Origin: Squalus acanthias
Taxonomy: Eukaryota
Length of the DNA stretch: 64,000 nt
NCBI GenBank assembly: GCA_030390025.1
Contig: CM059432.1
Coordinates: forward strand, 34,102,001 to 34,166,000
Reading direction: 5' to 3'
In this document: positions 16,076 through 61,336 of the stretch, piece after piece
Layout of the letters: every line of letters begins with the position of its first letter
How positions within the stretch are numbered: position 1 is the stretch's first letter
Program-made: the position numbers and the translations under genes
Notes under the pieces: generated by a model
What the model saw: only the letters and a program-made list of their open reading frames with translations
Told to the model about the DNA's origin: nothing
The model's database searches: none

Positions 16076-16161
16076 CCGAAATAGGCAGTGGTGTTGCCGA
16101 TGGTCAGAAGGACTATAACAGCGAAGAGTTGCCATCCCAGAGAGCAGTGTCCATCCAGCAT
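16076..16161 (-). CDS. wnt9a: Wnt-9a exon 1 (signal peptide); remaining exons lie beyond the left edge
   Basis: Translates MLDGHCSLGWQLFAVIVLLTIGNTTAYF(G), matching the recalled WNT9A N-terminus MLDG...AAYFG. Ends in phase 2 at TTC GG|gtacgt (16075), the expected WNT9A intron-1 position. No exon-2 peptide (LTG.EPL...CDRLKL) seen in 1-16075. Confidence 0.9.
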
Positions 16162-18833: not shown

Positions 18834-19542
18834 GGGGGAGAAATTCATTATAGCCCCGTTTGTGGCGCTAACTTTTAAAAATTGAGAAAATTAGCACCAG
18901 GCGCTAATGTTTCTAAATTTAAAAAAAAATTTGGTTTTGCGTTCCAGGAAGGAAGTGGAGCGCTAAATCAAACGCTCCACTTCCTTCTTGGAGCGCAACA
19001 GGCAGCAGGCTGGGGCGGAGACTTCAGCAGTGCTGCACACTGGGCTGTGCAGTGCTGCCGCATTCAAAGGCTTCTTCCCTCCCTTAAAGGGCCATCGCTG
19101 CAGGCTCTGCAATATGAAAAGTACCTACCTAGACCACCAAGGCAGCCGCAATCCCATGCGATCAGTCCGGCACTCAACCCGCAAAAAAAACTGGAAGGTA
19201 AGTTATTTTTTTTACTTTCCTCGGCCACCTGGCCTTTAATCATCACCCCTGAAGCAGCCGGTCGCCCGATGCACGCCTCCTGTGGCTGTCGGTGTTTTCG
19301 ACCAGTGCTGCTGCAGGGGGCAGAAGTCAATTTCAGGTCCGGGGCACTACGTACGCCGATGACGTCACGATCTGCGGGCGAAGGAGATCGGGGCGCAATG
19401 CCGTAGCGCCGCTGCAAAACTCCCGCCAAATATGGCGGGAGTCAATGTCAGCTCTGCGCCCGGTCGCAAAGCCATTTGCACCCCGTTAGCGCCCCCCGGG
19501 GGCGCGCTAATGGGAGGTGCAAAGGCACCCAATTTCGCCCCC
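18834..19542. mobile_element. Non-autonomous Harbinger-like MITE
   Basis: TIRs gggggagaaatt / aatttcgccccc with 3-bp TSD ACT on both sides. The left end (..aaattcattatagcc) resembles the left end of the Myb-bearing Harbinger at 31930. Confidence 0.8.
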
Positions 19543-20000
19543 ACTGACTCCAGCTTCACCCTTACTGATTATCGCTCTCCCTGTGTAACTCTGCACAAAC
19601 CTTTCACGCCTGGCCTTTAATTAATCATCAGTTAAGGCTTTCCTCTGGCATTTCAACCCTTCTTTTATGCAAGCCTACTTTTGCAATGAAATTATCAGAT
19701 GAAAATAGCACAAGGTTACAGATGGATCGATTTAGATCTGTCTGTCTGTATATATGTATGTATATATCTATGATTCTGCGTTGTAACTTCTGTGTATTCC
19801 TTCTATGTATATTCGCTTATATAAAATACTTACATATATCACACACGCCATTGAAACCTACTATATAAATATTTCCAATCGGAATTCCAATGTTAAAATG
19901 TCCACACTCGCCTGTTATACTTACCGGTTACATTTACCCTTAACACCAGTAGACGGCGCTCTAATAGGACTTTCAATGCTAATCTGATTTAGTTGTCTCT

Positions 20001-20321
20001 AGTGAGAAGTCGCACAACACCAGGTTATAGTCCAACAGTTTTATTTGAAATCACAAGCTTTTGTCTCTGTAAGACCACCACCTACTACAGTTGTGATTAT
20101 TATTGAGAAGTCGCACAACACCAGGTTATAGTCCAACAGTTTTATTTAAAATTACGAGCTTTCGGAGCTGTCGCCCCTTCTTCAGGTACAGGTACGTGTA
20201 CCTGAAGAAGGAGCGGAGCGCCGAAAGCTCGTAATTTTAAATAAAACTGTTGGACTATAACCTGGTGTTGTGCGACTTCTCATATTTGTCCACCCCAGTC
20301 CAACACCGGCATCTCCGCATC
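20001..20321. mobile_element. Two Penelope-type terminal-repeat inserts: 20001-20060 (truncated) and 20106-20321 (inverted pair plus tail)
   Basis: gagaagtcgcacaacaccaggttatagtccaacag repeats. TSDs ttgtctct (19993-20000 / 20061-20068) and gtgattattattg (20093-20105 / 20322-20334). Contains hammerhead cores. Confidence 0.7.
20153..20188 (-). ncRNA. Minimal type-I hammerhead ribozyme motif; mirror copy on + at 20199-20233
   Basis: Minus strand reads uac-CUGAAGA-a-GGGGC-gaca-GCUCC-GAAA-GCUC-gua: conserved cores, 5-bp stem II, palindromic AGCU stem III, stem I UAC/GUA. The + copy has one stem II mismatch. Confidence 0.65.
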
Positions 20322-22119
20322 GTGATTATTATTGTAATGTAAATCTTAAAGCTTTAATGTAATTTTTAAAAAAGTGTAAAAATTAGTGCCTCGCTGTCTA
20401 AGGCCCCAGACTCCGTAGCCTGCGCCCAGCTTCAGCCCACAATGAGGCTGCCCTGGGCCAATATCTGCTGCTCTGTCAGCCACAGACCCAGGATGGTATC
20501 ACTAGTATTCAATAAAAAGTCTTACCTGCCCTCTGGCTCCATTTAAAATGCTGATCCCGTTCTCCAAGGCTCCCAGCCATGGCCCCTTGGCTCTACCTCA
20601 AAGTCATGCTGGTCCAATGCTTGTATCACTGTCCCCACCCCACCCCGGATCCTGGCTGGCTTTACTCCATATCCCACCATGTAAAAGGTGAGCCCCACTC
20701 CCCCAGGCTAATTGCTCTGCACTGCTGCTATTCCTGTGAGCTTCCTCTACCAAATGTCTGCAGACCGCCAATTGTCTCACCATGAACAAGGCCACTGGAT
20801 AGCAACCAATATATATTTATTTCTTGTATCTAGTATGCATCCTTTGCATTTCAGACGTCACACTCCAGAAGGACGCCAGAAGTCAAAACAGAAAAGAAAG
20901 AGACAGCCAGTCATTTCCTGCTGGTCTTCTGAACCTGGCCTCTTCCCCAGCTGTAGGAGCCAGAGATTTACAAGGAGCTGCCAATCTATAGAAACTTACC
21001 CTCAACAGTTAGCCGCTAATTGATCTGGGGAGGTATCTATTTAGACCACCTCCCCACACCTGATCAACAGCCTGAATGAGAACACACTGAGTTCAATGCA
21101 GCGCCAACTTAGCAGCTAATCGTCACCACTGTGCTCGATGGGACATCAGCTTGTGCGTCTCATACTAGAGAGACCTCCTCTAACGCCCACTGGGGGTGGG
21201 TTCCCCCCGAGCTGAGTTTGTGCGGCTGGCCGATTATTCGGACCGAGCCTTGTTAGCAGTGGGCCTGACGGACTGCGGCCACAGATGGGTGGGTAATATT
21301 GGGCAGCCCAGTCGGCCCCCGAGCCAGTAGATCTGTGGGATGGTGGCTCCCCCCAATCTCTGGGGAGGGGAGGAGAGGAGCCAGAGAGCGGGCAGCGGCC
21401 CAGATTGATTCTATGGAAGCGGTCGGAGTGGGAACGGCGCGCGCTCCGCCTGGTTCAGCCCAAAATATGGCAATCGGAGGCCTTTGTACATCATCGAACA
21501 CCAATTTCTGCCTAATATAGGGACAGGGTAAAACATTAAGCCCCTCTAGCACCTGACTCCGGGGAGGGATGTGGCTCTCCGGCCGCCCAGCAGCAGACTC
21601 GGGTTTGAACATTGCCGCACAACGGCAGTGGGAACGGGGCGGTAGGTCAGTCATTGCCCACCAGTTGCGGGGAGCTGCCGTCCTGTGTCCGCCAGACGGG
21701 AGGCCTGGAAATTCAGCCCAATGTGTTTAAAGCTAGAGTAGTAAAATTCCAAGTGTGAGGAACATGTTTGATTTTACATGTAAAGAGCTAAACTCCCATG
21801 GGATGCCACTTGGATCGACACCTGCTTTTACTTTTGCCAGGTTGTTTGAAGTTTATGTTTCGAATGAAAATAAGATTGCCGAGGGGGCGGGAGGGAAATT
21901 TCCAGAGTAAAAGCATAAACTGATTTGTTCCCAAACTTTTCACAGCGACCTCTTCCAATTGGACTTCTTCTCATTAACTGTTACTCTTCCCCCCCCCCCA
22001 TTTGTCTTCTAATTCTCCCCCCCCCCCCCCCCCCGAAGGTGGTGACTTGTTTTGGGGTGAACTTCCGCAGGCACAAGCCACACTTTGGTACCTTGTTCAA
22101 GTGGTTATTGTGTGTGAGT

Positions 22120-25100
22120 CTCTCTCTGTCTCTCTCTCTTAGGCAGTCCCTCAGAACTGAGGATGACTTGCTTCCATGTTAAAAATGAGTTCTCAGGTGA
22201 CTGATGAGTCCAATGCAGGACCTACAGTCTCTGTCACAGGTGGGGCAGACGGTGGTTGAAGGGGCGGGTGGGTGGGGTGCTTGGGTTGACGTGCGCTGCC
22301 TGCGCTTGGCTTCCGCTTGCTCCCAGCGAAGAGACTTGAGGTGTTCAGTGCCTTCCCGGATGCTTCTACTCCACTTTGTGCGGTCTTGGGCCAGGGATTC
22401 CCAGGTGTCGGTGGGGATGTTACACTTTTTCAAGGAGGCTTTGAGGGTGTCCTTGAAGTGTTTCCTCTGCCCACCTGGGGCTCTCTTGCTGTGCCGGAGC
22501 TCCGAGTAGAGCGCTTGTTTTGGGAGTCTCGTATCGGGCATGCGGACAATGCGACCCGTCCATCGGAGCTGATCGAACGTGGTCAAAGCTTCGATGCTGG
22601 GGATGTTGGCCTGAGCGAGAACACTGACGTTGGTGCGCCTATCCTGCCAATGGATTTGCAGGATCTTGCGGAGGCAGCGTTGGTGGTACCTCTCCAGTGC
22701 TTTGAGGTGCCTGCTGTACATGGTCCATGTCTCTGAGGCATACAGCAGGGCGGGTATCACTGCTGCTCTGTAGACCATGAGCTTAGTGCCGGGTTTGAGG
22801 TCCTGGCTTTCAAACACACTCTTCCTCAGGCGGCCGAAGGCTGCACTGGCATACTGAAGGTGGTGTTGGACTTCGTCATCGACGTATGCCCTTGTTGACA
22901 GTAGGCTCCCGAGATATGGAAAGTGGTCCACGTTGCCCAAGGCCTTGTCGTTGATTTGATAATCGGGGACAGTACTGTGTGGTGGGGGCAGGTTGGTAGA
23001 GGACCTTTGTCTTACGGATGTTTAGTGTAAGGCCCATGCTCTCGTACGCTTCGGTGAAGGAGCTCGACCTCCGAGTGAGCACAGACGCAAGAGTCATCTG
23101 CATAGTATAATTCGACGACAGAGGATGGGACGACCTTGGATCTGGACTAGAGGCGATGGAGGTTGAACAGTTTCCCGTTTGTTCTGTAAATTAGCTCCAC
23201 TCCAGTGGGGAGCTTACTGAGGGTGAGATGGAGCATTGCAGCAAGGAAGATCAAGAAGAGCATTGGTTCGATGACACAGCCTTGCTTGACCCCGGTTCGT
23301 ACGTGAATTGGGTCTGTGGTGGAACCATTGGTCAGGATCACGGCTTGCATGTCGTCGTGAAGCAGGCGAAGGATGGTGACAAACTTCTGAGGGCAGCCGA
23401 ATTTAAGGAGGACACTCCATAATCCCTCATGGTTGACAGTGTCCAAGGCCTTTGTGAGATCAAAGAAGGCCATGTACAGTGGTTGGTGCTGTTCCCTGCA
23501 TTTCTCTTGTAATTGACGTGCGGTGAAGATCATGTCCATTGTGCCCCTTAGTGGGCGAAATCCGCATTGCGACTCTGGGAGGAGCTCTTCGGCCACTGGG
23601 AGAAGGCGATTGAGGAGGATTCTTGCGATGACTTTCCCTGTGGCAGATAGCAGGGAAACTCCTCTGTAATTACCGCAATCGGACTTGTCACCTTTCTTGA
23701 AGATGGTCACAATTACGGCGTCTGAGATCCCCTGGCATGCTCTCCTCCTTCCAGATAAGAGAAATGAGTTCATGAATTTGCGCCAGTAGTGCTTCTCCAC
23801 CATGCTTTAGTGCCTCAGCGGGGATTCCATCTGCTCCTGAGGCCTTGTTGTTCTTCAGTTGTCGGATGGCCTTTTCAACCTCATGCCGGGCTGGGGTTGT
23901 GCTGAGATGGTGGCGGGTAGCATGCTGCGGGATGGAGTTGAGGACACTCGCGTCGAAGACAGAGTCTCGGTTAAGGAGATCTTCGAAGTGCTCCTTCCAG
24001 CGGGCACTGACTGCCCCTCTGTCCTTGATGAGTACCTCTCCATTCTTGGCCCGCAGTGGGGTAGGGACTTGGGTGCTTGGGTCGTAGATGGTCTTGTCTG
24101 CGCTAAAGAATCTACGCATGTCGTGGTTGTCGGCTAGCTGCTGGATCTCCTACGCTTTCTCCACCCTTCTTTAGGTCGCGAGTTTTTGTTGGACCTCGGC
24201 CTTCAGGCGTCTGTAGAGCTGCTTTCTTGCTCTCGAGTTCTGTTGCTGTTTCCAGATCAGGAATGCCTTGCGCTTGTGGCTTATTAGCTCCTGGATCTCC
24301 TGGTCGTTCTCGTCGAACCAGTCTTGGTGTTTCCTGGTCAAGTGACCGAGCGTCTCTTCACAGGTGCTGATTATGGAGGCCTTGAGTGCAGACCAGGCGC
24401 TGTGGGCACTCTGTGTCTCTGCATCACTGGGAGTCGTCAGGTTGTTTGTGAGGCACAGGCTGAATAGGGCCTTCTAGGGTGTCTTTGAGTGCTCCAGCGT
24501 TTTTCTTGCGGCATTGTTTCTGTTGCCGCCGCTGTTTTGGGGCTACATTGATGGAGATGACAGAGTGGATTAGGCGGTGGTCTGTACAGCAGTCTTCAGC
24601 TCCTGTCATGGCGCGGGTGATGCGGATGTCCTTGCAGTCCCTCGCTCGGACGATCACGTAGTCCAGCAGATGCCAGTGCTTGGAGCGAGGGTGCTGCCAT
24701 GAAGCCTTGTACTTGTCTCTCTGACGGAACAAGGTGTTGGTTATGACAAGGCCATGTTCTAAGCATTTTGACAGGAGGAGGGTACCTTTGGAGTTGGCTT
24801 TCCCTACACCCTCTCTGCCGATCACACCTCCCCAGAGGTCTGTGTCCTTTCTAACTCTGGCGTTAAAGTCACCAAGGACGATCAGCTTGTCGCCCGTTGG
24901 GACTCGGGACAGGGATTGTTTGAGGCTGGAGTAGAATTCGTCTTTGGTCTCGTCTGTGGCTTCCAGTGTTGGGGCGTACGCACTGATGACCGTAGCGCAC
25001 TGGTTCCGGGCTAGGGTGTGCCGAAGAGTCATGAGGCGCTCATTTATACCGCTAGGAGAGTCTTTGAGACGCCCAACTAGTTCATTTTTTATGGCAAAGC

Positions 25101-25815
25101 CTACCCCACGGAAGCGGCGTTCTTCTTCAGGTTTGCCTTTCCAGAAGAAGGTGTAGCCACCACCTTGCTCCTTGAGCTGGCCTTCCCCTGCCCGCCGGGT
25201 CTCACTTAGGGCGACGATGTCAATGTCGAAACGTCTGAGCTCCTGGGCAACGATAGCAGTACGGCGTTCCGGTCTGTCACTGTTGGGGTTGTCCATGAGG
25301 GTCCTGACGTGCCAGGTCCCGAACTTCATTTTAAAGGGTGGAAGATGCCTGTGCGTGAATTCTTTTAACGTGGGGTGGCCGTTGCACACCAGCTACCACA
25401 CGGGCTTGACAGAGCAAGGTCTTGGTCCAATGGCAAGGGGATCCAAGACGATTGGAGACCAGGCTCTGCTACAACGGCCTAGCACACACACACAAACATA
25501 ATGCTACAGTCCTCCTCCCTCCGTCCCGCTGGTCCTCTCTGCCTGGGTTTCGTAGGATGCATTGTGGTCCTCCCGATCTCACTGTTGGCCCATGCCGCAC
25601 CTTCCCTGGGCCCCGACCCCGCTGCTGGTCCACGCTGCGCCACTCCTGGGCCTTGACCTCGCTGCTGGGCTCGTCCTCGCTCCTGGATCCCGGCCTCGGA
25701 CATGAATGACGTTGTCTCTCACAGGATCAAATTAGCACTGATATTCTCGCGATCCCTGGCCCCGAACTCCACTCGCGATCCACTAGTCACTAGATCACTA
25801 GTCTAGTGGAGAAGC
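22120..25815 (-). mobile_element. RTE-clade LINE, near full length, frameshifted
   Basis: APE endonuclease (WHVRTLMD..RPERRTA..ALSETR..LGDFNARV..LLDY), RT (NYRGVSLLS..SQCGFR..GVKQG, YADD at 23104-23093) and a C-terminal CCHH finger (CPTC..HLRTH). Simple-repeat tail at 22120-22140; 5' boundary approximate. Confidence 0.92.
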
Positions 25816-30900: not shown

Positions 30901-31491
30901 AAGGACTCATTCCTGTGAACCCATTGCTCATCCATTTTTTTTTTGTTAATACTATGTATGGATTGATTCTTCAAAGTTGGTTCTAGAAGACATGAAGAAA
31001 CTTATCCATTTGTGGTGCAACCACTTCAAGTTCAAAGATGTGATGGTTGGTAGATGGCGTCAATGCCCCAGTGGTGGCCTGCGTTCTCCACATGACCTCC
31101 GCGCCAGGATGTAGTTGCCGACTCAACACACTACACCTTGAAGTGGTAGGGCACGCATGTGCTTATGTCAAGAGCCTTAAAGGTTATCAAGTCCATGTCT
31201 TCCATAGACCATGTATGATCCCTTCTGTTTTGAACTGTACCGTATCCATTTAATCTCATTAGGAAAGGTTCTTAGTTTCCACTTCAGATGAAGTGTTAAA
31301 TCGAGGCCCCATTTGTCTCTTTAAAGATCCCATCGCACTATTTGAAGATGAAATTTAGTATGAACAGATGTAAGGTACTGAACATGACAAGAAAAAATAG
31401 TGGCCCAATAACTAAGGTTGAAGTTCAGAGATCTAGGGGTCTTAGTAGATTCGACACTCAACATTGTGAGGAGCAATCAAAAAGGCAAATC

Positions 31492-31587
31492 TGACGAAAG
31501 GTCATCGACCTGAAACGTTAACTCTGTTTCTCTCTCCACAGATGCTGCCTGACCTGCTGAGTATTTCCAGCATTTTCTGTTTTTATT
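31492..31587 (+). mobile_element. Penelope-type terminal fragment (second family) starting at a hammerhead core, inserted in CR1
   Basis: CUGACGA-a-AGGUC-auc-GACCU-GAAA-CGUU-aacuc at 31491-31524. TSD aagRcaaatc at 31482-31491 and 31588-31597. Interrupts CR1 coding for AIKKAN|QML. Confidence 0.65.
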
Positions 31588-31929
31588 AAGACAAATCAAA
31601 TGTTGAACTTAATAACAAAAACAGTAGAATACAGGTCAGATGTCATGCTCAAACTGTTGAGTGCTCTCGTCAGACCAGACCTTGAGTACTTTGTTCAGTT
31701 TAGGTTACTGAGTTACAAGGGAGACTTTCAAGTTCTGGAGGCAGTTCAGAGAAGGACCACATGCCTGATCTCTAGGTTGGAGCACTGAGTTATGGGGAAA
31801 GACTGGAGGAACTTGGACTTTTTAGCCTTGAAAGGAGGTAACTGAGAGAGGGCCCTGTAGAGAGGCATATAAGATTGTAATTGATATAGAAAAGGTAAAT
31901 CTGGAACACTATTTCAAACTAAACTTAAT

Positions 31930-34158
31930 GGGCTAGAAATGCATTATAGCCAAGGAATGGGCGGTGTCAGTAGAAAAGTTGGAGAATTAGCGCCAGGCGC
32001 AATTGCTTTAGACTGCATGAAAAATTTGTGCTCAATGAAATGATTGGAGTCCTAAACCAAGTCTTAAAACCCAAGCTCATTGGCGTTAGACTTAAAGGGT
32101 GGACCAATATCGGGTGCAGTCCTAATCGCAACTCATCATTGCTCCAGGCTTTTTTCACTACTTAAAGGGGCGGTTCATTGATGCTGCAGCACCTCATTCT
32201 CAGCGTTGCTGGCTGTGCAGCTGTGTCAGCAAGCAGAAGCAGAACAAAGAGAAGGAGCTGGAGGACTGAACCAGGTGTGTTCATGGCAGGTCCACGCCCC
32301 AGGGACAGAACCCACAGATTCTCTGATGAAGCATTAGAGGTATTGGTTTTCGCTGTGGAGAGACAGAGCGCGGAGCTCTACCCGGTAAGTGGCAGGAGGC
32401 CCTTGCCACAAGTCTTCTGCACCATGTGGAGGGAGGTAGCGCAGCATGTCTCGGGCAGCACTGTGGTCCACAGGACCCACACAAAGTGCAGGAAGAAATT
32501 TAATGACCTCACTCGGGTGGTCAGGGTGAGTGAAAGCTTCAACAAATGCTACATACCACCATCTGTACCACAATCTTCACACACTGCCCAAAGCACCCAC
32601 CACAATCTCTACCTAGCAACACTCACACCCACATCACACACCTTGCACACAATGACAGCTATTCAACTATGGCAGGCACATCACCCAAACACATTGCTCC
32701 ACATTCACTCACACACTTTCCTTTCTCTTGAAGGCCAAGGTGGCATACAACAGGAGGGAGCAGGAGCGCACAGGCGGGGAACAAGCCAACACCCAACCAC
32801 GGCCTGCGCTGGAGAATCGAGTGCTGCAAATCATTGGGCACCAGGTGGTGGGCGCCGTGGCCACCGGCGATGTTGAGCCCCTTAGGGACAACAACAGTAT
32901 GTTCATCCCTACTCCTTCTCACAACCCACTTCCCCCTCACCCCACAAGCATTTCGCACTTTCCAGCTAATCATGCTGTATGGATGCATTTCTCCCTTCCT
33001 GCCTCCCTCCCCTTCAACTTAACCCGACTCGTGCCTTTATGCATTCAGATAATCAGCAAGCACATGAGCAGCCTGTCCCTGAGGACACAGTAGAGAGCGA
33101 GGCGGGAGAAGAGGAGGAGGAAGAACACACCGTGTCACTGCATCTTTCACCCACAGATACCAGCTCCGATACTGGCACTACGCATTTTTTAGAAGCTAGT
33201 ATAGTGGCGGGATCTGCACAGGGTGAGTCCCTGGGGATGAGTGGCCTGCAGCAAGGCCAGGGGGCAAGGGTAGTTCGGAGGCCAGCTCCCCAGAGTGCAA
33301 GTTCGCGTGCAAGTTCTATTGAACAGGACTCAGATGAGGACCTCGATGGGGAGGCCTTTAGAAGAAGGGTGATGGCCATGCACACGGAGATGATGGGTGC
33401 AATGGCAAGGGTGCCCAAGAGCCTGTCGGCAATGATAAGGAGCGTGGAGGAGTCCGCCTCCAACATTGCACAAGGCTCTGTGCACACCATGGAGCCCATC
33501 ATTTCCAGTCTGCAAAGGATGGTACACTCACAGAGAGACCGTGGCGACCCAGACCTGATGCCGCGTGTGATGGGCGATCTGGCAGCTTCCATTGCAGCAC
33601 AGGCGGAAGCGACGCAACGTCTTAGTGCTGTAATGCAGTCTATGCTTGGTGGCATCCAATCTCAGACTGCTCTCATGCAGTCTCAGCTTGATGCCACGCA
33701 AGCTCTGACTGCTGCCATCATGGCTGGGTCTACCACCATTGACCGGGCTTTCATGGTGTCACAGCAGGCCAGCAATCTGTGCTCCAACAGATTGCTAGGG
33801 ATGCTGAGGTGCTGTCCCGGGGGTGTGGCAGTGGGTCAATGGAGCAGGAACCTGCTGTCCTCTCTCAGTATGACAGCATTCCTGCTCCCACCACTGCCAC
33901 TCCGCCATTGCCCTTGTCGCTGCCTGTCATCCAGCCAGCCCAGACTGCTGCCGCCCATGCTGAGATGGTGCAGTCTACAGCGTTGCACACTCACTGACGT
34001 CACGATCTACCTTGTGTTGACGTTCCCGGCGATAACTCTTACTGGCAGCGCTACAGGGGGCCGGATTTGGCGTGTGGCGCTGGATTCGCCTCGCCCCGGC
34101 GATACTGGTCTAGCACCCCATTGGCGCCATCTACTGACGCTAACAGGAGGCGATAAGG
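31930..34158 (+). mobile_element. Internally deleted PIF/Harbinger element (Myb/SANT gene kept, transposase lost)
   Basis: Left end gggctagaaat. 33981-34158 is the reverse complement of the left subterminal region of the element at 58293. 33660-33980 matches 64000-63680(-). Confidence 0.85.
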
Positions 34159-34217
34159 GGACAAATTTAGGACTGATGTCAAAAGGCTCTTCACAAACGG
34201 ATGGGACTTCTGGATAG
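32283..34217 (+). CDS. Harbinger-derived Myb/SANT-like (MSANTD-type) protein, exons 32283-32525, 32734-32896, 33049-34217
   Basis: RFSDEALEVLV..W.EVA..V......RT..KCRKKFNDL motif. Canonical splice sites (gtgagt/aag, gtatgt/cag) in phases 0 and 1. The joined frame is open for 524 aa; the last part is frameshifted relative to the paralog after about 33745. Confidence 0.6.
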
Positions 34218-40000: not shown

Positions 40001-40282
40001 CTTCCATTAAAATAATAGACAATTGTCCCTGAATGTGTAAAACTTTCGTATACCGATATTTACTCTGTGCTGAGTTAGGTGATCTAAACTACGGATGCTA
40101 TAGGAGCTCTGCAATCTGATTGAGCCATTCGGAGCCAGCGAGTGGAAACATCCGCCAGCATTCCCACATCCTATTTGTAAACAGTGACACCTGTTGGAAA
40201 ATAGGTGCTCGTGGATGTCACTGAAGGCATGTTCAAATAAACCCTGTAATATAAACAGAGTCAGCTTTTCTTCCTAATATAC

Positions 40283-42980
40283 ACAAGGTCTGCTATTCCC
40301 TGTAATATACACAGGGTCTGTTATTCTCTATAATATACACAGGGTCTGCTATTCTCTAAAGTATACGCAGGGTCTGTTAGTCTCTATAATATATACAGGG
40401 TCTGTTATTATCTATAATATATACAGGGTCTGCTATTCTCTATAATATATACAGGGTCTGCTATTCTCTATAATATATACAGGGTCTGCTATTCTCTATA
40501 ATATACACAGGATCTGCTATTCTCTATAATATACACAAGGACTGCTATTCTCTATAATATATACAGGATCTGCTATTCTCTATAATATACACAAGATCTG
40601 CTATTCTCTATAATATACACAGGGTCTGCTATTCCCTATATTATACACAGGGTCTGCTATTCTCTATAATGTACACAAGATCTGCTATTCTCTATAATAT
40701 ACACAGGGTCTGCTATTCTCTATAATATACACACGGTCTGCTATTCTCTATAATATATACAGGGTCTGCTATTCTCTATAATATACACAAGGACTGCTAT
40801 TCTCTATAATATATACAGGATCTGCTATTCTCTATAATATACACAAGATCTGCTATTCTCTATAATATACACAGGGTCTGCTATTCCCTATATTATACAC
40901 AGGGTCTGCTATTCTCTATAATGTACACAAGATCTGCTATTCTCTATAATATACACAGGGTCTGCTATTCTCTATAATATACACACGGTCTGCTATTCTC
41001 TATAATATATACAGGGTCTGCTATTCTCTATAATATACACAAGGTCTGCTATTCCCTATAATATTCACAGGGTCTGCTATTCTCTATAATATATACAGGG
41101 TCTGCTATTCTCTATAATATACACAGGATCTGCTGTTCCCTATAATGTACACAGGGTCTGCTATTCTCTATACTGTACACAGGGTCTGCTATTCTCTATA
41201 ATATACACAAGGACTGCTATTCTCTATAATATACACAAGATCTGCTATTCTCTATAATATACACAGGGTCTGCTATTCTCTATAATATATACAGGGTCTG
41301 CTATTCTCTATAATATACACAGGGTCTGCTATTCTCTATAATATATACAGGGTCTGCTATTCTCTATAATATACACAGGGTCTGCTATTCCCTATAATAT
41401 ATACAGGGTCTGCTATTCTCTATAATATACACAGGGTCTGCTATTCTCTATAATATACACAAGGTCTGCTATTCTCTATAATATATACAGGGTCTGCTAT
41501 TCTCTATAATATACACAAGGTCTGCTATTCTCTATAATATACACAGGGTCTGCTATTCTCTATAATATACACAAGGTCTGCTATTCTCTATAATATACAC
41601 AAGGTCTGCTATTCTCTATAATATATACAGGGTCTGCTATTCTCTATAATATACGCAGGGTCTGCTATTCTCTATAATATATACAGGGTCTGCTATTCTC
41701 TATAATATACACAGGATCTGCTATTCTCTATAATATACGCAGGGTCTGTTATTCTCTATAATATTCACAGGGTCCGTTATTCTCTATAATATACAGAGGG
41801 TCTGCTATTCTCTAATATATACAGGGTCTGTTATTCTCTATAATATTCACAGGGTCCGTTATTCTCTATAATATACAGAGGGTCTGTTATTCTCTATAAT
41901 ATACAGGGTCTGCTATTCTCTATAATATATACAGGGTCTGTTATTCTCCATAATATACGCAGGGTCTGCTATTCTCTAATATATACAGGGTCCGCTATTC
42001 TCTATAATATATACAGGGTCTGCTATTCTCTATAATATACACAGGGTCTGCTATTCTCTATAATATATACAGGGTCTGCTATTCTCTATAATATATACAG
42101 GGTCTGCTATTCTCTATAATATATACAGGGTCTGCTATTCTCTATAATATATACAGGGTCTGTTATTCTCTATAATATACACAGGGTCCGTTATTCTCTA
42201 TAATATATACAGGGTCCGCTATTCTCTATAATATACACAGGGTCTGCTATTCTCTGTAATATATACAGGGTTTGTTATTCTCTATAATATACGCAGGGTC
42301 TGTTATTCTCTATAATATACACAGGGTCTGTAATTCTCTATAATATATACAGGGTTTGTTATTCTCTATAATATACACAGGGTCTGCTATTCTCTATAAT
42401 ATACACAGGGTCTGTAATTCTCTATAATATATACAGGGTTTGTTATTCTCTATAATATACGCAGGGTCTGCTATTCTCTATAATATACACAGGGTCTGTT
42501 ATTCTCTATAATATATACAGGGTCTGCTATTCTCTATAATATATACAGGGTCTGCTATTCTCTATAATATACACAGGGTCTGTTATTCTCTATAATATAT
42601 ACAGGGTCTGCTATTCTCTATAATATATACAGGGTCTGCTAGTCTCTATAATATACACAGGGTCTGCTATTCTCTATAATATATACAGGGTCTTCTATTC
42701 TCTATAATATACACAGGGTCTGCTATTCTCTATAATATATACAGGGTCTGCTATTCTCTATAATATATACAGGGTCTGCTATTCTCTATAATATGCACAG
42801 GGCCTGTTATTCCCTATAATATATACAGGGTCTGCTATTTTCTATAATATACACAGGGTCTGTTATTCCCTATAATATACACAGGGTCTGTTATTCCTTA
42901 TAATATATACAGGGTCTGCTATTTTCTATAATATACACAGGGTCTGCTATTCTCTATAATATATACAGGGTCTGTTATTC
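40283..42980. repeat. Satellite/minisatellite, 28-bp unit, roughly 95 copies
   Basis: Unit acagggtctgctattctctataatataY with period 28 (e.g. 40451 to 40479); no spacers. Confidence 0.98.
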
Positions 42981-43829
42981 ACAATAATACATGACAGCTG
43001 TGGCGTTACTGCCACAAATGGTGCAAATGAAACATTCATGCCTTGGAATGAAAGCAGCCAGTAACTGAAACATAGAAACAGGAGGAGGCCATTCAGCCCC
43101 TCGAGCCTGTTCCGCCATTCAATTAGATCATGGCTGATCTGTACCTCAACTCCATTTACCCACCTTTGCTCCATATGCCTTGATACCCTTATTTAACAAA
43201 AAATTATCAACCTCAGTCTTGAAAACCCCAATTGGCCCAGCATCGACCGCCCTTTGAGGGAGAGAGTTCCAGAATTCCATTTTTGTTTGTGTGTAAAAGT
43301 GCTTCCTGATTTCCCTCCTAAATGGCCGAGCTCTAATTTTAAAGATTATGCTCCTTTGTTCTGGATTTCTCCACCAGAGGAAATAGCTTCTCTGTATCTA
43401 CCTTAAGACCTTCTGACTCAGGGGTGAAAGTGTTCCGAGTGAGCCAAGCTGACACTTATCTGGAAGGTGTTAATGTGCTGAAAAGCTTGTCAGCTCACAG
43501 CTGCTGCTGACTTTAACTGACTTCAGGCCACGGACTGACTCTGTTGAGTGCGGCGGGACCATAGAACAGGACTAATTGGGGAGAATGTTATCCTTGGAGC
43601 AGGATTATACATCGAGGGATGTTTTTCCTGGACGCTGCAATCGACATATTGAGTGTGAATGGGAAGTGATGTGCTTGATGGGAATGTTATGGTTAGGTCA
43701 GGTTGTACGTGGGGTTAAACGGACACTTGAAGTCATTCTCTGAGCGCATTGCAGGTGTCCTGCCTCTCAACTTATCAGCGTCACGGGTCAAGCAGCGAGC
43801 TCTCTTGCTTCCATCCAACCTTTTCTTTG

Positions 43830-47078: not shown

Positions 47079-47255
47079 TGAGAAGTCGCACAACACCAGG
47101 TTATAGTCCAACAGTTTTATTTGAAATCACGAGCTTTCGGAGCGCTGCTCCTTCGTCAGGTAAATTTCAAATAAAACCGTTGGACTATAACCTGGTGTTG
47201 TGCGACTTCTCATTTTTGTCCACCCCAGTCCAACACCGGCATCTCCGCATCATGG
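47079..47255. mobile_element. Penelope-type inverted terminal-repeat insert with hammerhead (47127-47163, minus) inside a SacSINE1-like copy
   Basis: Minus strand uuac-CUGACGA-a-GGAGC-agc-GCUCC-GAAA-GCUC-guga. TSD tccctacRttac at 47067-47078 and 47256-47267. Confidence 0.7.
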
Positions 47256-49151: not shown

Positions 49152-52099
49152 AGTATGTCTGCAGACTGAGGAAGGTGAGGAGTGCCACTGCTTCAAAGTC
49201 CAGGGATTCTATATTTATCGAGGAGTTTCTGCATATGAATCCACAATGCAGTTCCACTTAATGTTAAAGGGCAGCTTCACACAAAGCCCTAAAGAATATG
49301 TAACAGTTTGGGGTAGACTTACCCTGGCCTCCAACACTGGAAACCTCCCGGTTTCTCCCGATCAGTCACTGCAGCTTCCGCAGAAGATCGGCGAAACACC
49401 CCAGGTACAGGCAGAAACCAGATTTCCACCCTCTTAAAGTGTTATTCGCGTCATGAGCAAATCGGGAAGACTCCTCCATGTTCAGTATTTGTAGTGAAAC
49501 GGTAACAGTCCCTCTGGAAGGTTTCACTAACAGGAAAATTTCCTGCCGCGTTTACGTCGTCACCATCCCATAGCAACCAGAGTAAATCTCCGTCCTTGAA
49601 ATAATAATGGGGGGGGGGGGGGAAGAAAGAAAGAAAAGAATCATCATAGAATGATCACAGCACAGAAGGAGGCCATTCGGCCCATCGAGCCCGTGCCGGC
49701 TCTGTGCAAGAGCACTTCAGCTAGTCCCACTGCCCCGCCCTTTCCCCGTAGCCCTGCAAATTTTTTCCTTCAGGTACTTCTCCAACTCACTTTTGAAAGC
49801 CGTGATTGAATCTGCCCCCACCACCCTTTCAGGCAGTGCATTCCAGGTCTTAACCACTTGCTGCGTAAAAAAGTTTTTTCTTACATCGCCTTTGGTTCTT
49901 TTGCCAGTCATCTTAAATCTGTGTCCTCTGGTTCTTCCAATAGGAACAGTTTCTCTATCTACTCTGTCCAAACCCTTCATGATTTTGAACACCTCTATCA
50001 AATCTCCTCTCAACCTTCTCTGCTCCAAGGAGAACAACCCCAGCTTCTCCAGTCTATCAACGTAATTGAAGTCCCTCATCCCTGGAATCATTCTCGTAAA
50101 GAAGAAAAACTTGTGTTTATATTGCACGACCACTGGATGTCCCAAAGCACTTTACAGCCAATTGTTTTGAAGTGTAGTCACTGTTGTAATGTAATGGGGG
50201 GAGGAACGGCGTTGTCCTACTGGATAACCCTCCAGTTACCTAGCAACACCCTCCACATTGTCCTCCCATTGTCTCTTAAATGAGAGGTTAAAACATATCC
50301 CAAATGTTAGCTGTCAGTCTGCTGTGTGTTTTGATGGAGATGGAACTAGAGCAGCAGCTCATTCGGAAGATGCTGGCATGTTACATAGACTTACATAGAA
50401 TTGGCAGCACAGAAACAGGCCATCGGCCCAACAAGTCTACGCTGGTGTTTATGCTCCACATGAGCCTCCTCCCAACCTACTTCATCTAACCCTATTAGCA
50501 TATCCTTCTACTCCTGTCTCCCTCATGTACTTATTTAGCTACCCCTTAAATGCATCTATGCTGTTCGCCTCGGCTATTCCATTGTAGTATTGTAATCCCA
50601 TCTCATGGTGCGATGCGATTACTCATCTCTCCGCCCACTGCTGAATATTTGATGTGTTCTGGAGAGAAGTAAGAATGGGAAGTATTAGAACTCCCTGGGT
50701 CCTAGAAAGCCTCAAACAAATCAAACATAGTTCGTACGGAGTGCTGAGATGGATCTTAGGGAAGGAGAAAAGTTTGGCAGTCAGCCCAATGCTGCTACTA
50801 TGCACCTCTGCAAAAGGCTTGCTGCCTGTCTTGTAGACTGAGGATGGTGCACAGCACACAGTAACTTTTTAAATTAATTTTTGGGATGTGGGCATCGCTG
50901 GCAAGGTCGGCATTTATTGCCCATCCCTAGTTGCCCTGAGAAGGTGGTGGTGGGCCTTTTTCTTGAACGAGAGGGCAGTTAAGAGTCAACGGCCGCGATT
51001 TTCCGCGTGGAGGCATGTTGGAGGCGGCTTTGATGTTCGGCGGGTTCCAGTCCCGCTGCCGGTTTTAGCCGCCCTGGAATTAAGATTTTTGCTTAAGTGG
51101 GCTGATTAAGCCCGTCGTGCGCGCTACCCGGCCCAATCAGTAGGTTCGGGTCTGCTGCTCGCCTCTGCTGACATCTTTCAGCCAGCTGAATTTAAGGGGC
51201 CCATGCAGCCTTGTTTTTGATCCATCCTATTCTGCTGCTTCTCGGTGTGGCACTTCTGAAAATGACTGCTGCAAGAGCCAAGGCATCTCCCAGATTTGAT
51301 GATGACTCCCTCCATGGTCTTGTGGAGGGAGTGAGAGGGCGCCAAGAGGTACTGTTCCCCTCAAACGGACGGAGGAAGCCTCTTCAGCAAACCAAGGCAG
51401 CCTGGCTGCAAATTGCTGAGGAGGTGAGCGCCAGGTCTTTGTGTGGTCGCACCTGGGTTCAGTGCAGGAAAAGGTTCAATGACCTGCTACGCACAGCAAA
51501 AGTGAGTATAACATCACACTTACCTTCAATCTGCTCCCCATCTCCTCTCATCACCAGCACTCTGCATTGTCAACCTATTCCTGCACATCCCACTTTTCCC
51601 TTACATCCCTTGCACCCTTAACCATCCCTCTCTGTGTACAGAATCACTTCACTATTCTACTATGCACCCCTCACACTCGCTATCACTGTTATGCAATGAC
51701 AACAACTAACAACGCACAGGGAGGGCCCTTGGTATTAGCACCTCACTCCATCTTTGTCTCCTCTAAGCATCTATGCTATGGATTCTCTACACTCACTCCA
51801 ACATTCTCACTCAAACTCCACTTGTGTCCCTCATTGCAGGAAAAGAGAGCCCACAATAAGAGGGAGAGGGGCAAGACAGGAGGAGGGCCACCTTCGATTG
51901 CCCACTTGGCCACCACTGAGGAGGCTGCTCTCAACATCGTCGGAGGTGCTGAGGATCTGGAAGTGGGGGATGGTCAGACGGACGCAGTAGAGCAAGCTGG
52001 TGACAGAATAGATTTGCAGCCCTCTCATTTAGATTGCATGAGTGACTGATATGGCATCTGATGCTCATACAGATTGAGTTCTGATCATCTGCACAATTC

Positions 52100-55340: not shown

Positions 55341-56345
55341 TTAAGCGAATCTGGCATGGATTAGTGCATCCCTTGCATCACAGCCAGCAATGTGCTCACA
55401 TGCTGGTGAAACTGGCACATCCGCCTCCGCAAGGTCTTCCTACTCCTCCTCTTCCTCCTCCTCCTCCTCCTCCTCCTCCTCTGAGGAGGCTGTGCTCAGG
55501 CAACAGTAAGCCACGCTGCTGTGCGATGTTGTGCAGTGCACAACAGACCACAATGATTCTGGAGACCCTGGCTGGTGCATACTGTAGGGCTCCACCAGAT
55601 CTGTCCAGGCATCTGAATCGCATTGTGAGCAAGCCGATGGTTTGCTCGATGATGGCTCTGGTGGAAATGTGGCTCGCATTGTAGTGCTCCTCATTTTCGT
55701 TTGATGGCCTCCTCAATGGCGTCATTAGCCATGTCTTATGGGGATAGTCCTTGTCTCCAAGTAGCCATCCAGAAAGTTGGGTTGGTGGATTGAAGAGCTG
55801 AGGCACAGTAGACTGCCGCAGGATGAACGAGTCATGGCAACTGCCAGGGAACTTGACGCAAACATGCAAAATGTCCTTCTTGTGGTTACACACCAGCTGG
55901 ATGTTAAGGGAGTGGAAGCACTTACGGTTGACAAATACAGCCGGGTTGTGATGGGGTGCCCTAATGGCCACATGTGTGCAGACTACGACACCCTGCACTT
56001 GGCAAGCCTGCCATATTTACAAAGCCAACCGCACGCGCGGTTACACTTGCTTCATCCGTGGAGAAGTGGATGTAATTGTGCGCCTTTGCAAAGAGGGCAT
56101 CGGTAACCTGCATGATGCAAGCGTGTGCGGCCGACTGGGAGATGCCGCTGATGTCTGCTGATGATACCTGGAAGGACCCTGAAGCAAAAAAGTTGAGTGC
56201 GGTGGTGACTTTGACAGCCACTGGTAAGGAGTGTCCACCCGTTTCTCTGGGCTGCAGGTGTTGGTGCAGCATTGCGCAGATGTCAGCGACTACCTCTTGC
56301 AAAAGTCTCAGCCTCCTTTGGCACTGCTGCTCAGTCATGTTGAGG
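55341..56345 (-). pseudogene. Harbinger DDE transposase (HARBI1-like), frameshifted
   Basis: [18 protein letters not shown] (first catalytic Asp of G.IDCTH replaced), [31 protein letters not shown] and CCALHN motifs. Frameshift near 55998. Confidence 0.92.
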
Positions 56346-59300
56346 AATAGATGTTATAAGCGCTCAGTCAATGTGGGGAGAGGTTTTTCCAAGGAGGTCA
56401 CACTGCATATGGATCTCAGCTTAACCACTTACAAGCTCAGTAGACCTGCAAAAAGTGTTCCAACACCTCAAAAAACAAAGTTCTGTCATCTGAAACTCAG
56501 CCATGTTACAGGTCTGCTTTTATGCTGCAGGTGCAGCTGTCAAGAATTCGCGTAGTTCCTGAACCCGCCACAATCAGCTGGCGTGTTTTGCGAACGGCGT
56601 GGAACACGTTGAAAATGTCTTAAAATGGGAAGAGCCTGCTAAAATCGGATTATGTAGGCAGTTAACAAGCTGTTAGCTGCCTTAAGTGCCTCTCCCGCCG
56701 CTTGGTGTCGGGTCTGAGAGGGACTCCCAGACCCGACACTTGGCAAAGTTGCGTGGAGGCGGGTTGACGGCGGGTTCCGAACCCGCCATCAATCAAAACG
56801 AATTTAACCTCTGACCCACCTCCAAACCCGCCCTCTGAGCGCCGGCAAAATCGCGGCCAACGACTTTGGTGTGGGCCTGGAGTCACATATTGGTCAGACC
56901 CGGTAAGGACGGCAGGTTTTCTTCCCTAAAGTGAACAAGCTGTGCGTTTACGCCAGTCCGACAGCTACATGGTCACTTTTACTGCTACCAGCTTTTTATT
57001 TACAGATTTTTTAATTCAAATTCTTAAACTACGATGGCGTGATTTAAATTTGCATTTTCCTGGATTATTAGTCCAGTAACATAACCACTACACTACCGAA
57101 CCCTTCAGCCTTCAGATGTAAAATGGCCAATTCATTGTATGTGAACCAGTTTGAGATGTTTTTGAGAGATGGGATTAAGCAATACGTAAATGCAAAAACT
57201 TTGGTTTCTCTTTCAGTGTTGAAGGGCTTGCACTCTGCAGTCCCCTTCTTTCTGAGCCCTCCCCACCCCTGGTTTTATCCAGAACTTTGCCTGGTTTGCC
57301 AGTGTTTTAAATAAAGTTGTGTAAGATTTTTCTTTTACAAAGTATTTAACCAGGTAAGAGGGGTTAATTGTCTGAAGCTTAGTTTGTGACTTCTATGCCA
57401 AGTTCTCCCAGACTCCTAGCCAAAAGCAATAGGATCAAGCGTATCAAATCACTCGTTCTGTTTGACAGCACACTTTTGAAGTCTCAAAAAATGCACTTCC
57501 TTTGTTCAGATCTCACCGGAGGCCACCTTACAACCCAATGGTAAGAAGTTCTGCCAAGACCCCAGCTACACGTGGTGCTTCCACATAACACTTGAGCCAC
57601 CCCTGGGAGTTTGGTCGCCCTTCCTCGGGGCCATGGTGATGGGGCTGGTTCTTGGAAGGACAGTGTGCAGTGCGAGGAACAATAGTCAGCCTTCTGGCAA
57701 TGCGTGTAGGATTATTGTACTGACCTCGTTTGAGTTGCTTCACTTCAACGGGACACATTGTCATGAGCACGCTGTGGAAACCCAAGGAGTGGAGGATGAG
57801 GTTGGTGCAGTCGCAGTGCAGGTGGCTGGATTCCTTCCTCCCAGATTGTTTTTCCGTTTCACAGTTTGCCTTTGCTCCAGTTTTGAAGCTGATTCTATTT
57901 CTTTGTTTCTTGCTGCTGCCCTCTCTCGTTCATTCAAAGATTCCTGAACTGAGGAACATTAGGCTATTCAGCCCCTCGGGCCTGCTCTGCCATTCTATTA
58001 GATCATGGCTGATCTGCACCTCAACTTCATTTGCGCGCCTTTGCTCCATATCCCTGGATATCTTTAACCAAAAAAAATCTGTCGATCTTGAAAATTTCAA
58101 TTGTCCCAGCATTCACAGCCTATTGGTGGAGAAAGTTCCAGGTTTCCAAAGAAAGACTTAGGAAAGTGAATGTTCCTCAATCACCAGCACAATATAATCA
58201 GGTTAACTGGATATTCCAAGGGATTGTGCTGTGTATAAAATAGGTGTCATGTTTTGCCTATGTACCAACAACCTCTGCACTTAGAATCATAGGGGGAATA
58301 ATTCAGTTGGTTAGCGCCTCCCGTTAGCGCCAGCAGCTGGCACTAACGGGGCACTGATGAAGTAGCGCTGGTGCAAGGTGAATCCAGCGATGCACAGCAA
58401 ATCCGGACACCCCATTGTGCCGCCGGTACGAGTTACCGGCGAGGACTTCAACGTCAGGCAGATCGTGATGTCAGTGAGCGTGCAACGCTCACTGGGCAGC
58501 CGAACTTCAAAATTCATTTTCGCCACCTACCTTAGTGCCTCAACCAGACAGCGACAGAGAGAGCTGGCATGAAGCAGGCGGAAGCCGGCTTCAGGGACGT
58601 CGTTTAAAGGGATCATGAGTAATGAGTTGCAGCTGTCAGGTTAGTGGAGTTTCAGTGCTTTCTTGTCAGTTTGACATTGTGCAACAGTTTAATTCAGGAA
58701 TTTAAAGGTTCTTTTGTATCAGGAGTGTTGTGGTAACTAAAAAGTAGTAACATTTATTCTTAAAAAAATATCAAAGTGCTACACTTGGCTTACATTAATG
58801 GGGGCTGTACCGGCAGTTGACCTCGCCCTCCAGGATCTACGGTGGAGGGAGCGGAGGCAGACTGGAACTGGAACATGTGCCCAGAAGGAGGAGGAGGGCC
58901 ATCAGGGCTCTCAACAGGAGGCCTTACCCTCCAAGGGTATTCCAAGAGCACTTCTCCTACCTCCAATTAAGCAAGGAGCAGTGTATTAGGAGGCTCCGCT
59001 TCACCAAGGAGGTGGTCACAAAACTCTGCCACTTCCTGTGAACAGACCTCCAGCCTCAGATCAGGGTGACCACGGCTCTCTCAGTGGCAGTCAAGGTCAT
59101 CGTCGCCCTCAAATTCTTCGCCAACGGATCCTTCGAATCTGCAACAGGAGACATAGCTAACATCTCGCAGTTCGCCATCCATTGCTGCATCCGGGAGGTC
59201 ACTGAGGCTCTCTACAGTAGAAGGGATTACATTTCCTTCCCCATCACCAGAGAGAAGAAGGACGAGCGTGCATGTGGCTTTGCCAGGATAGCGGGATTCC

Positions 59301-59426
59301 CCATAATGCAGGGCACCATTGACTGCACCCACATGGCTTTGCGGCCACCGCATAACAATCCTGACATCTTCCGTAACCGCAAAGGCTACGACTCACTTAA
59401 TGTGCTGTTGGTGTGCGACCACAGAC

Positions 59427-61336
59427 TGAAGGGATTTTTTACTAGTCCTAGCCCCTTTAGGGCTACCCCGGATCAGGCGTATTTCTCAGACGTTCACTTT
59501 CAACTAAAGTTTGAGGTAGCCGAATCCTAAAGACGCTTAATTGGGTCTAAAGGTCCAGGCTATCTCTCCCTAAAGGAAAGGAACAACCCAAGAATGTTAC
59601 CATCCTCCAGATAGCGCTTTTAATAAGTTTAGTTAAATTGTGACGTCCCGGATATTATGAGGGTCTGGAAAACTCCCCCAGAAATGTAACTCTTCACCAA
59701 AGAGTGTACAGAGATTGAGTTTGCGAGTTTTTGATACAGAAGACTTATGTGAGACAATTCTAAAAATATATAGAGATTTATTAAAAGAACCGAAATGCAA
59801 TTTACAGTTGGTGAATCAGTCAATCGCAACATTAACAGTTCTAAAAAGAGAGAAAATACTATCTTTTTAACAGAGAATCTTACTTTTAAATCTTAACTTC
59901 GCCACAGCATTACAGTTCTTAAAGTTCTCTTTACAGGATATCCATCAATATCAAATACCTTTGACCCCTGAGGTACAAAGAGTTGGAGACTACAGAGCCG
60001 CCTCTGAAGCCGAGAATCGCTTTGCCCGATTAAAGCGAGTCTGATATCCCATTTGAGAGTTCAATATTTATACCCTTTTCCAGTGGTATTTCCTTTAAGG
60101 TTTTCTGCTGATGCAAGTTAATTATCATTATTCATCTTTCTGCCGACCTCTGCAATTCTTACTGCTAAATCAGCCAGAATCTTGTCTCATCTCCAGGTGT
60201 TCTAGGTTGACCATATAAAAACGGTGTGAATGGCAGGTTTACCTTATTTTATGTTATCTTTATGAGGGCAGATGTTCCTTATCTTAAGTGCCATCTTTAC
60301 GAAGTTTAAATTAGAACACCTTATCCAGGGTGAACCATTGTTTTTGTTCCCAAAGGTCAGCCTGTCGGAGCCATGCACCTTCTGTTTCAATAAGGTTATT
60401 TATTCAGCATCAACAACTGTCTTATCTCAATAGCCAGAATTCTTTCATAGCTATTTCATAGTTAGGTTTCTAAATTTCCAAACCCAGTTTGTCATGTTTT
60501 AATAAGGCCAGAATTCTTCCATAAGATAATGGCCCAGAAATTGGAGTTCGATGGTTGCCGCGGGGGTAAGGATCCCCCGCGATATCGCACTCCGCGCCTA
60601 CCTTTATGGTTTTGGCCCACACGAACTTCAGTTCCTGGGCCTCTCCCTGGTGCCGGCGCGCAGTGTGTGCGTGTCCCAGAGGTGCAGTTAGTGCGATGCG
60701 ACCTCTAGGATCACGTGGGCCAGTTAGAGCCAATGGCAGCACACCATCTTTCATTCATAGTTTTGACAGCAAGAGCTGTCAAAGCTATGAATACAACAAG
60801 CCCCCAAAAGAACAGCTAAACCTCAATTAAATTTTTTAAAAAGCCATCACATTAATAAAATAACTATAGTTAAATAAATTAACCACTTTAAACAAAAATT
60901 TAAATTTTTGAAATTTTTTAATTCTTTTTAAAAGTTATAAAAATAAACTTACCTTTCTTTAAAGTCTCTAAAAAAGATAAACCTGTTGAAAAAAATTTAA
61001 AATAATACTTAATTAACTACTTACCTTGTTAAAAGGGGGTCTTACGCCTGCTTTCTTTATGTGTAAAATCTTCAACACTTACCTGCGCGTTCAAACCTGA
61101 AAAAAAAACTAAGTGTGCTGCGTGCGCGCAACCTGTAGCGCGCACGCGGTTCACTTAGGAACCGCCCCCTTTGCCATACATGAAGTGCCGGTTTCCCACG
61201 CATGCGCAGTGCATGCAGGAAACCGGCACTTCGGGACCTAATACGCGAGAGTACACAGTGCGTACTCTCCCGCATTAGGTCTAATTTTCGGGCCAGTGTA
61301 TTTTTCTGAATAGGTTATATGGCCTATTCCTTCACA
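59427..61336 (-). mobile_element. Solo LTR (about 1.14 kb excluding the nested MITE 60531-61294)
   Basis: TG...CA termini with short inverted ends and 4-bp TSD AGAC (59423-59426 / 61337-61340). Minus-strand TATAAA at 60072-60067 and AATAAA at 59782-59777. Removal restores transposase CDHR|QLIL. Confidence 0.8.

Follow-up and report, generated by a model that had tools for sequence, protein, structure and literature searches.

Small hammerhead-bearing inserts in a shark genome as probable by-products of Penelope-like retrotransposon insertion

Two small inserts that carry hammerhead ribozyme motifs, whole or in part, lie close together in the window (the whole stretch of 64,000 nucleotides analysed here) and raise the question of whether they belong to a mini-element of their own kind or are pieces of a larger retrotransposon. 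A first-pass annotation of the same DNA had described them as protein-free, ribozyme-bearing mini-elements mobilised in trans. The features discussed below are collected in Table 1.

Table 1. Positions in the window of the inserts, their parts and their context
Feature	Position	Strand	Remarks
Left TSD of insert B	19993..20000		8 bp, TTGTCTCT; single copy in organism C, to judge from a 32-letter gap
Insert B	20001..20060	minus	Single tail-less PLE arm; retains cut-site triplet and 3' strand of stem I
Right TSD of insert B	20061..20068		8 bp
Host spacer between both insertion sites	20069..20092		24 bp, unique
Left TSD of insert A	20093..20105		13 bp; final 2 letters common to element end
Inverted arm of insert A, tail-less	20106..20191	minus	Arm alignment
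Minimal hammerhead motif, left arm of A	20153..20188	minus	C3 at 20185; stem II GGGGC/GCUCC; predicted cut 20156/20155
Head-to-head junction of insert A	20192..20196		1-5 letters, certain fit to neither arm's parent
Direct arm of insert A	20197..20282	plus	Arm alignment
Minimal hammerhead motif, right arm of A	20199..20233	plus	C3 at 20202; stem II GGAGC/GCGCC; predicted cut 20230/20231
PLE tail of insert A	20283..20321	plus	39 bp, unpaired, direct arm only
Right TSD of insert A	20322..20334		13 bp
Copy C, same family	47079..47255		177 bp; inverted arm with whole hammerhead, direct arm starting near cut site, tail
Probable first coding exon (context only)	16076..16161	minus	ATG 16161, reading MLDG...AYFG; GT donor at 16075

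Insert A (20106-20321) is 216 bp long and is flanked on either side by an exact 13-bp target-site duplication (TSD), GTGATTATTATTG; the computed chance of this 13-mer at one given place is ~1×10−8. It consists, in order, of an inverted arm, a junction of one to five letters, a direct arm and a 39-bp tail. The inverted arms comprise 66 nt at 98% (20104-20169/20217-20282) and 22 nt at 91% about the centre, and the alignment of arms and repeats confirmed the earlier description of a 216-bp insert made of an inverted repeat plus a short tail within a perfect 13-bp TSD. The inverted arm may extend to 20195 if the parent was a variant with a 6-nt repeat; contigs of other copies have loose ends at 20195. 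Of 87 aligned columns, 5 differ between the arms, and all 5 fall in a stretch of ten columns in stem/loop II (P 0.0003; P 0.027 when counted as three events). The other 77 columns, outside stem/loop II, are identical, which indicates that insert A is young. Two templates, or mutation focused on the loop, would each account for the differences in stem/loop II.

Insert B, which is 60 bp long and lies between 8-bp TTGTCTCT repeats, ends 45 bp before insert A. Its 5' end falls inside the GAAAGCU box and precedes the cut site by 6-7 nt, as expected from the earlier claim of a separate, TSD-flanked copy that ends within the ribozyme. Contig depth was 7-17 on the host spacer, compared with about a million in the arms. 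A contig of the related organism C (run X7, record 25; 2428 nt, depth 8.2) fits 19900-19992 and 20322-20460. The 32 letters between these flanks correspond, compared by length, to one TTGTCTCT copy and the 24-nt spacer. Since this is the length predicted for a doubly empty site, A and B are two true insertions. In run X5, which derives from a second individual, record 17 enters insert B. Just upstream of insert B, at 19476-19519, we noticed GC-rich inverted repeats with a weak match to a miRNA model (E 0.2); they are probably the end of another repeat.

Both arms of insert A contain the motif UAC-CUGAAGA-A-stem II-GAAA-GCUC/GUA (the slash marks the predicted cut), and the window holds three whole motifs of this family and one partial motif. 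The core C3U4G5A6N7G8A9, G12A13A14A15.1, U16.1H17 was present in all three whole motifs, together with an unpaired A after A9, the closing pair G10.1-C11.1 and a palindromic AGCU that replaces stem III. When stems I and II of the three were aligned, 24 of 25 cells paired, compared with 23-46% for slid partners. The stem changes, which come from only three motifs, were two one-sided changes and one broken pair (an A-G mismatch is found in the right-arm stem II of insert A), with no two-sided change. Rfam covariance-model scans at E up to 5-10, the kind of search that the first-pass annotation had called for, matched no hammerhead family; the top matches were miRNA models on the hairpin, far below their gathering scores. 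The claim of one minimal hammerhead per arm was upheld by the full core in both arms, with the mismatched right stem II and without an Rfam match.

The motifs resemble the minimal type I hammerheads of metazoan Penelope-like elements (PLEs), as described in the available text of Cervera and De la Pena 2014 (PMC4209133), in their full core, the extra unpaired base before stem II, the G10.1-C11.1 pair, the palindromic AGCU in place of stem III and the variable loop II. Helix II has 5 bp and helix I has 3 bp in insert A, compared with 7-8 and 4-5 bp in Schistosoma mansoni (PMC4209133). The same text describes pairs of minimal hammerheads on opposite strands of S. mansoni DNA, 100-700 bp apart, and ascribes them to truncated PLEs; the motifs of insert A are ~15 nt apart. 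Sharks do not occur anywhere in that paper. A second hammerhead family is represented in the window by a single copy of 100 bp (31489-31588), with the motif CUGACGA..GAAA-CGUU/AAC and the palindrome ACGU. This insert starts within 2 nt of its CUGA box and has a possible, imperfect TSD of 9 bp.

Fold prediction gave the isolated left motif of insert A a penalty of 0.7 kcal/mol for adopting the hammerhead fold, and the isolated right motif a penalty of 6.4 kcal/mol. For a transcript through the whole of A, the predicted penalty was 56.9 (plus strand) or 48.9 kcal/mol (minus strand). Such a transcript is predicted to form one long hairpin, in which each motif is zipped to its antisense arm and the probability of CUGANGA being unpaired is 0.0. 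According to the available text of PMC4209133, minimal hammerheads require a same-strand dimer, and the position of the two motifs on opposite strands makes such a dimer impossible within insert A. We also considered insert B as the dimer partner of A's left hammerhead in a minus-strand transcript and rejected it, as the fold would still cost 41.5 kcal/mol. The earlier claim of an available hammerhead for transcripts of both strands thus holds at the level of sequence, but in the predicted fold (48.9-56.9 kcal/mol) both motifs are buried. With each hammerhead buried by its antisense arm, insert A was most likely dead on arrival, and the modelled folds make its hammerheads passengers.

The third copy of the family in the window, copy C, carries its hammerhead on the minus strand (C3 at 47159). 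Its TSDs (47067-47078/47256-47267) have 11 of 12 letters alike, and its host is a SINE-like repeat, look-alikes of which cross the site elsewhere in the window without an insert. The predicted fold of its minus-strand transcript is a ~55-bp hairpin capped by an open hammerhead (penalty 0.7 kcal/mol), since here the junction extends stem I. On these predictions, copy C is structurally a better ribozyme candidate than insert A, though without a dimer partner.

We aligned contigs of runs X2, X5, X7 (organism C) and X10 to 19900-20460, and 14,253, 10,980, 2,256 and 2,143 contigs matched, respectively. The family is very repetitive and hugely abundant: the summed depth, which is not a copy number, was millions on the arms and ~12 on the flanks. 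Run X10, by guess an RNA run, had a depth of 0 on most unique flank bins and is uninformative on transcription at this locus. In organism C, the dominant subfamily differs, with other letters at 20273 and 20281 and tails that end mostly at 20316, which indicates family turnover after the species split. Longer parents exist, since contigs (11 and 18 in X2) go on upstream of the hammerhead with letters in common. The summed depth falls across the hammerhead from about 4 million to 0.2 million (X2); we do not read this fall as a profile of truncation, since contig depths are no basis for ranking parts and insert A has rare variants in this region.

The 3' ends of the copies in the window are discrete. 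Counted with the cut site as +1, the arms stop between +50 and +54, the tails between +91 and +95. The contigs agree: among the 24 of 534 rows listed, loose ends of tailed arms cluster at 20321 (112 contigs in X2, 91 in X5) and 20325 (36 and 39), and those of tail-less arms at 20001 (41 and 33). Some contigs restart in the arm, in the same orientation, after the tail end (20321 to 20252 in X5, depth 333; 20321 to 20291 in X2, depth 91), and these are short partial tandems of the terminal module. The consensus behind the tail, built from loose ends at 20321, opens with ATG in X2, X5 and X7 (agreement ~0.4), and copy C terminates in ATGG. To judge from these letters, the open reading frame of the parent may start directly after the tail.

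The opposite ends of the arms are variable. Among the 15 of 75 joints listed, inverted arms start at -6 to +26 and direct arms at +1 to +59, which implies inserts of ~70-141 bp; two of the 15 are underestimated, with more hammerhead letters between the two sides. The joint table under-reports copies of the A type, in which both hammerheads are whole and which would align across the centre or be clipped instead of appearing as skips. Given this under-reporting and the share of joints listed, a recurring class of ~215 bp may be compatible with the table. The copies in the window are 60, 177 and 216 bp long. The first-pass annotation had proposed a discrete family of fixed length and had itself named random breakpoints among copies as evidence of ordinary truncated insertions; varied lengths and joints scattered in this way are what we found among the copies in the window and the joints listed, with neither a fixed length nor a common internal junction, and the proposal of a discrete family is not supported.

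The parent element was sought in several ways. No PLE open reading frame was recognised when the reading frames of the 64-kb window were read by eye. Pattern scans detected no relatives in metagenomes and none in viral contigs. Thirteen metagenome matches to a looser tail motif were each only 22-29 letters long and hence chance, and 11 pattern matches in prokaryote genomes were likewise taken as chance. Neither twin priming by PLEs nor short palindromic inserts of shark PLEs were the subject of any paper found by our literature search, which covered sources outside subscription journals, Repbase and supplements.

The inserts lie 3840 bp from the ATG at 16161 (to 20001) of a probable first coding exon, which we take to be that of wnt9a. 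A protein database check of this exon gave no usable match, and a search of the window for motifs of later Wnt exons was negative. The earlier placement of the inserts ~4 kb upstream of wnt9a thus stands as regards one minus-strand exon at that distance, while the gene name drew no usable match from the database. Other repeats are nearby. A near-complete LINE with endonuclease and reverse transcriptase in several frames, presumably RTE-like, occupies 22179-25392 on the minus strand, ~2 kb from insert A. A tandem array of 98 copies of a 28-bp unit (91% matches) extends over 40247-42989. Open reading frames at 32166-34217, 51196-52049, 55396-56353 and 59042-59530 look, as far as we can judge, like genes for a Harbinger-type transposase and its Myb/SANT partner; there are at least three copies.

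The arrangement of insert A is known from endonuclease-positive (EN+) PLEs. In these elements, an inverted 5'-truncated copy stands beside a direct one and a tail of 30-40 bp is found at one end (Craig et al. 2021, PMC8557442, in the part available). An inverted pLTR, a 31-bp tail and TSDs of 8-10 bp have also been described for PLE insertions, with the head-to-head arrangement being the commonest (Arkhipova et al. 2013, PMC3846280, likewise in part). Insert A shares with these complex insertions the head-to-head inverted copy, the tail at one end, the short TSD, the palindromic junction and the strong 5' truncation. Unlike the published cases, which in the text available were described on longer units, its halves are only the last 85-130 bp of the element and form one small palindrome free of open reading frames. 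As an arrangement, nothing is new here: both the inverted copy with its tail and pairs of hammerheads on opposite strands have already been published for PLEs.

Biochemical data exist for PAc, a PLE of the Poseidon clade from Anolis carolinensis (Frangieh et al. 2024, PMC11167929, in the part available). The PAc protein cuts and extends both target strands, with a preference for ATT, and reverse transcription begins at two internal start sites, the interval between which equals the tail. Hammerhead mutants of PAc insert normally, so cleavage is not needed, and no read in the anole RNA-seq data reported in that text ends at the hammerhead cut site. By analogy, two start sites downstream of the hammerhead would define the tail in the shark family too, with priming on both strands; the downstream start lies ~90 nt past the cut site in both elements, and insert A has an AT-rich target with ATT in its TSD. 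In contrast to PAc, the open reading frame of which begins at stem II in the published part, that frame is not open here (copy C has ACG, followed by a stop).

All PLE features that were testable here were found, apart from the target preference, on which the three copies give a mixed picture: ATT occurs in the TSD of A and in one TSD copy of C and is absent from the TSD of B (n=3). The TSDs are 13, 8 and 12 bp long in A, B and C, respectively. A and C contain a head-to-head inverted, 5'-truncated copy; B has one arm only.

We consider it highly probable that A and B arose independently, each as a stub-sized insertion of the end of an abundant EN+ Penelope-like retrotransposon (its terminal module of hammerhead, pLTR end and tail), and that they were built by two-site priming, early stops and head-to-head joining. 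Being protein-free, both must have been inserted by a reverse transcriptase and endonuclease encoded elsewhere. The enzyme would be an RT/GIY-YIG protein that nicks both strands of an AT-rich target with a stagger of 8-13 bp. On each nick, cDNA would then be primed from two internal start sites ~35-40 nt apart, giving one tailed and one tail-less arm; the two classes of 3' ends are observed here, while the biochemistry of priming is carried over from the anole element. Both cDNAs would end prematurely (5-6 nt upstream of the core of the hammerhead in this case), probably by run-off at the RNA 5' end, and their ends would be put together head-to-head by end joining. In insert B, only one arm would have been retained. 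Two primings followed by head-to-head joining imply that the palindrome is built anew at each insertion. The two inserts are thus ordinary by-products in a published PLE arrangement and not a new kind of mini-element. Of the initial description, the parts that survive are that they are protein-free, carry minimal hammerheads and were mobilised in trans, as pieces of a PLE; their status as a distinct mini-element family does not.

Non-LTR retrozymes, reportedly the topic of Cervera and De la Pena in 2020 (PMC7229834), are the non-autonomous derivatives of PLEs known so far, and like insert A they are protein-free, PLE pLTR-derived and equipped with a type I hammerhead. Retrozymes are head-to-tail tandems with at least two hammerheads on the same strand, and the only chondrichthyan sampled was found to have non-LTR ones (Li et al. 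2026, bioRxiv 10.64898/2026.07.22.740005, in the part available). Insert A, unlike them, is head-to-head, has one motif per strand and carries a tail and TSDs. Consecutive same-strand units with whole hammerheads were looked for, and there is no tandem array at the site.

Other explanations have to be weighed against PLE stub insertion. The inserts could belong to a discrete non-autonomous element (SINE-, MITE- or retrozyme-like), in which the ~215-bp palindrome itself is transcribed and put back into the genome in trans as one piece, its hammerheads processing the RNA. The pLTR sequences are sufficient for mobilisation in trans, as far as stated in the available text of PMC3846280, and with three of the five arms in the window starting between -33 and -35, inserts of about 215 bp would be expected to recur. 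The three lengths in the window and the scattered joints (15 of 75 listed) nevertheless make this quite improbable, as do the missing same-strand tandem, which is the defining retrozyme feature, and the hairpin predicted to bury both hammerheads. If the same kind of object is accepted, its inverted arm could have arisen by self-priming (snap-back) of a single cDNA or from an antisense template instead of two primings. Self-priming was proposed for Adineta vaga Penelope from palindromes at inverted junctions (PMC3846280, in part), and the junction of copy C falls in stem I, the strands of which are partly complementary. A snap-back copy should match its template arm, yet the arms of insert A differ at 5 of 87 columns within ten (P values as above); copy C has its whole hammerhead on the tail-less arm, which is not readily given by the folding back of one cDNA; and the anole protein primes both strands in vitro (PMC11167929, in part). 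We therefore regard snap-back as unlikely.

Insert A could also have been a longer inverted insertion, the centre of which was later deleted by palindrome instability, in which case its present junction would be uninformative about the RNA template. Long palindromes that are near-perfect are prone to losing their central part, and many joints of other copies (among the 15 of 75 listed) lie well inside the arms. On the other side, insert A is young, with 77 of 87 columns identical, and both of its arms begin within 3 nt of the left arm of copy C at another locus, where random deletion predicts otherwise; for insert A this history is highly improbable. Finally, wnt9a might have recruited the inserts as a cis-element or as an RNA switch that works in both directions, given that its probable first exon lies ~3.8 kb downstream of them. 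Organism C has neither insert at its orthologous site, the hammerheads are predicted to be buried, no tie between the inserts and wnt9a regulation was found, and in a family so abundant a copy near any gene is expected. Co-option is extremely improbable. PLE stub insertion remains the best explanation of A and B.

Within stub insertion, the starts of the arms deserve attention. The starts of both arms of insert A and of the left arm of copy C fall between -33 and -35, which is 5-6 nt ahead of C3, and this clustering of three of five arms is less random than plain drop-off of the reverse transcriptase predicts. The enzyme enters the ribozyme from its 3' side, so that, if the fold made it stall, the cDNA ends would be expected immediately downstream of the cut site. 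Arm ends beyond the hammerhead fold seem better matched by run-off at the RNA 5' end. In the Penelope element of D. virilis, the 5' end of helix I is also where an intron ends (PMC4209133, in the text available), which makes a splice junction an alternative to a transcription start as the origin of such an RNA end. The scattered joints of other copies could also stem from later deletion of palindrome centres.

In two of the 15 joints listed (of 75), the inverted arm begins precisely at the cut site, and the direct arm begins at position +1 or +2. These joints, 20155-20231 (depth 82, X2) and 20155-20232 (depth 76 in X2, 33 in X5), have 7-8 AT-rich letters between the two sides. Each is represented by one contig per run, their direct side is ambiguous in the AT-rich sequence, and they may come from one amplified event. 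Palindromes of ~140 bp with such joints are what cDNA of cleaved RNA would give, and to judge from their sequence they are a possible trace of cleavage in vivo.

We tentatively suggest, as a possibility that we hold far less firmly than stub insertion itself, that the stubs arise by a kind of short circuit, in which the PLE protein would initiate at its two internal sites on the 5' leader of the element's own RNA and run off the end of that RNA. The insert junctions would then preserve a fossil record of where germ-line RNAs have their 5' ends, with one class starting 5-10 nt before the hammerhead (at a transcription start or a splice junction; ~215 bp, such as insert A) and a second class starting exactly at the cut site (~140 bp). 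Each arm of insert A would perhaps derive from a different RNA molecule, via the halves of a dimeric protein. If this were true, the cut-site class would be genomic evidence of in vivo cleavage by the minimal hammerheads of PLEs.

As an object, insert A matters little, being one of very many truncated PLE ends in a published arrangement. Its value is as data. It bears on how PLE insertion finishes, that is, on the second strand and the inverted copy, and on whether minimal hammerheads cut in vivo, two matters raised in the available parts of PMC11167929 and PMC4209133. A genome this rich in young stubs permits a purely computational census, in which the starts of the arms are compared with the cut site and subfamily mismatches are scored from arm to arm.
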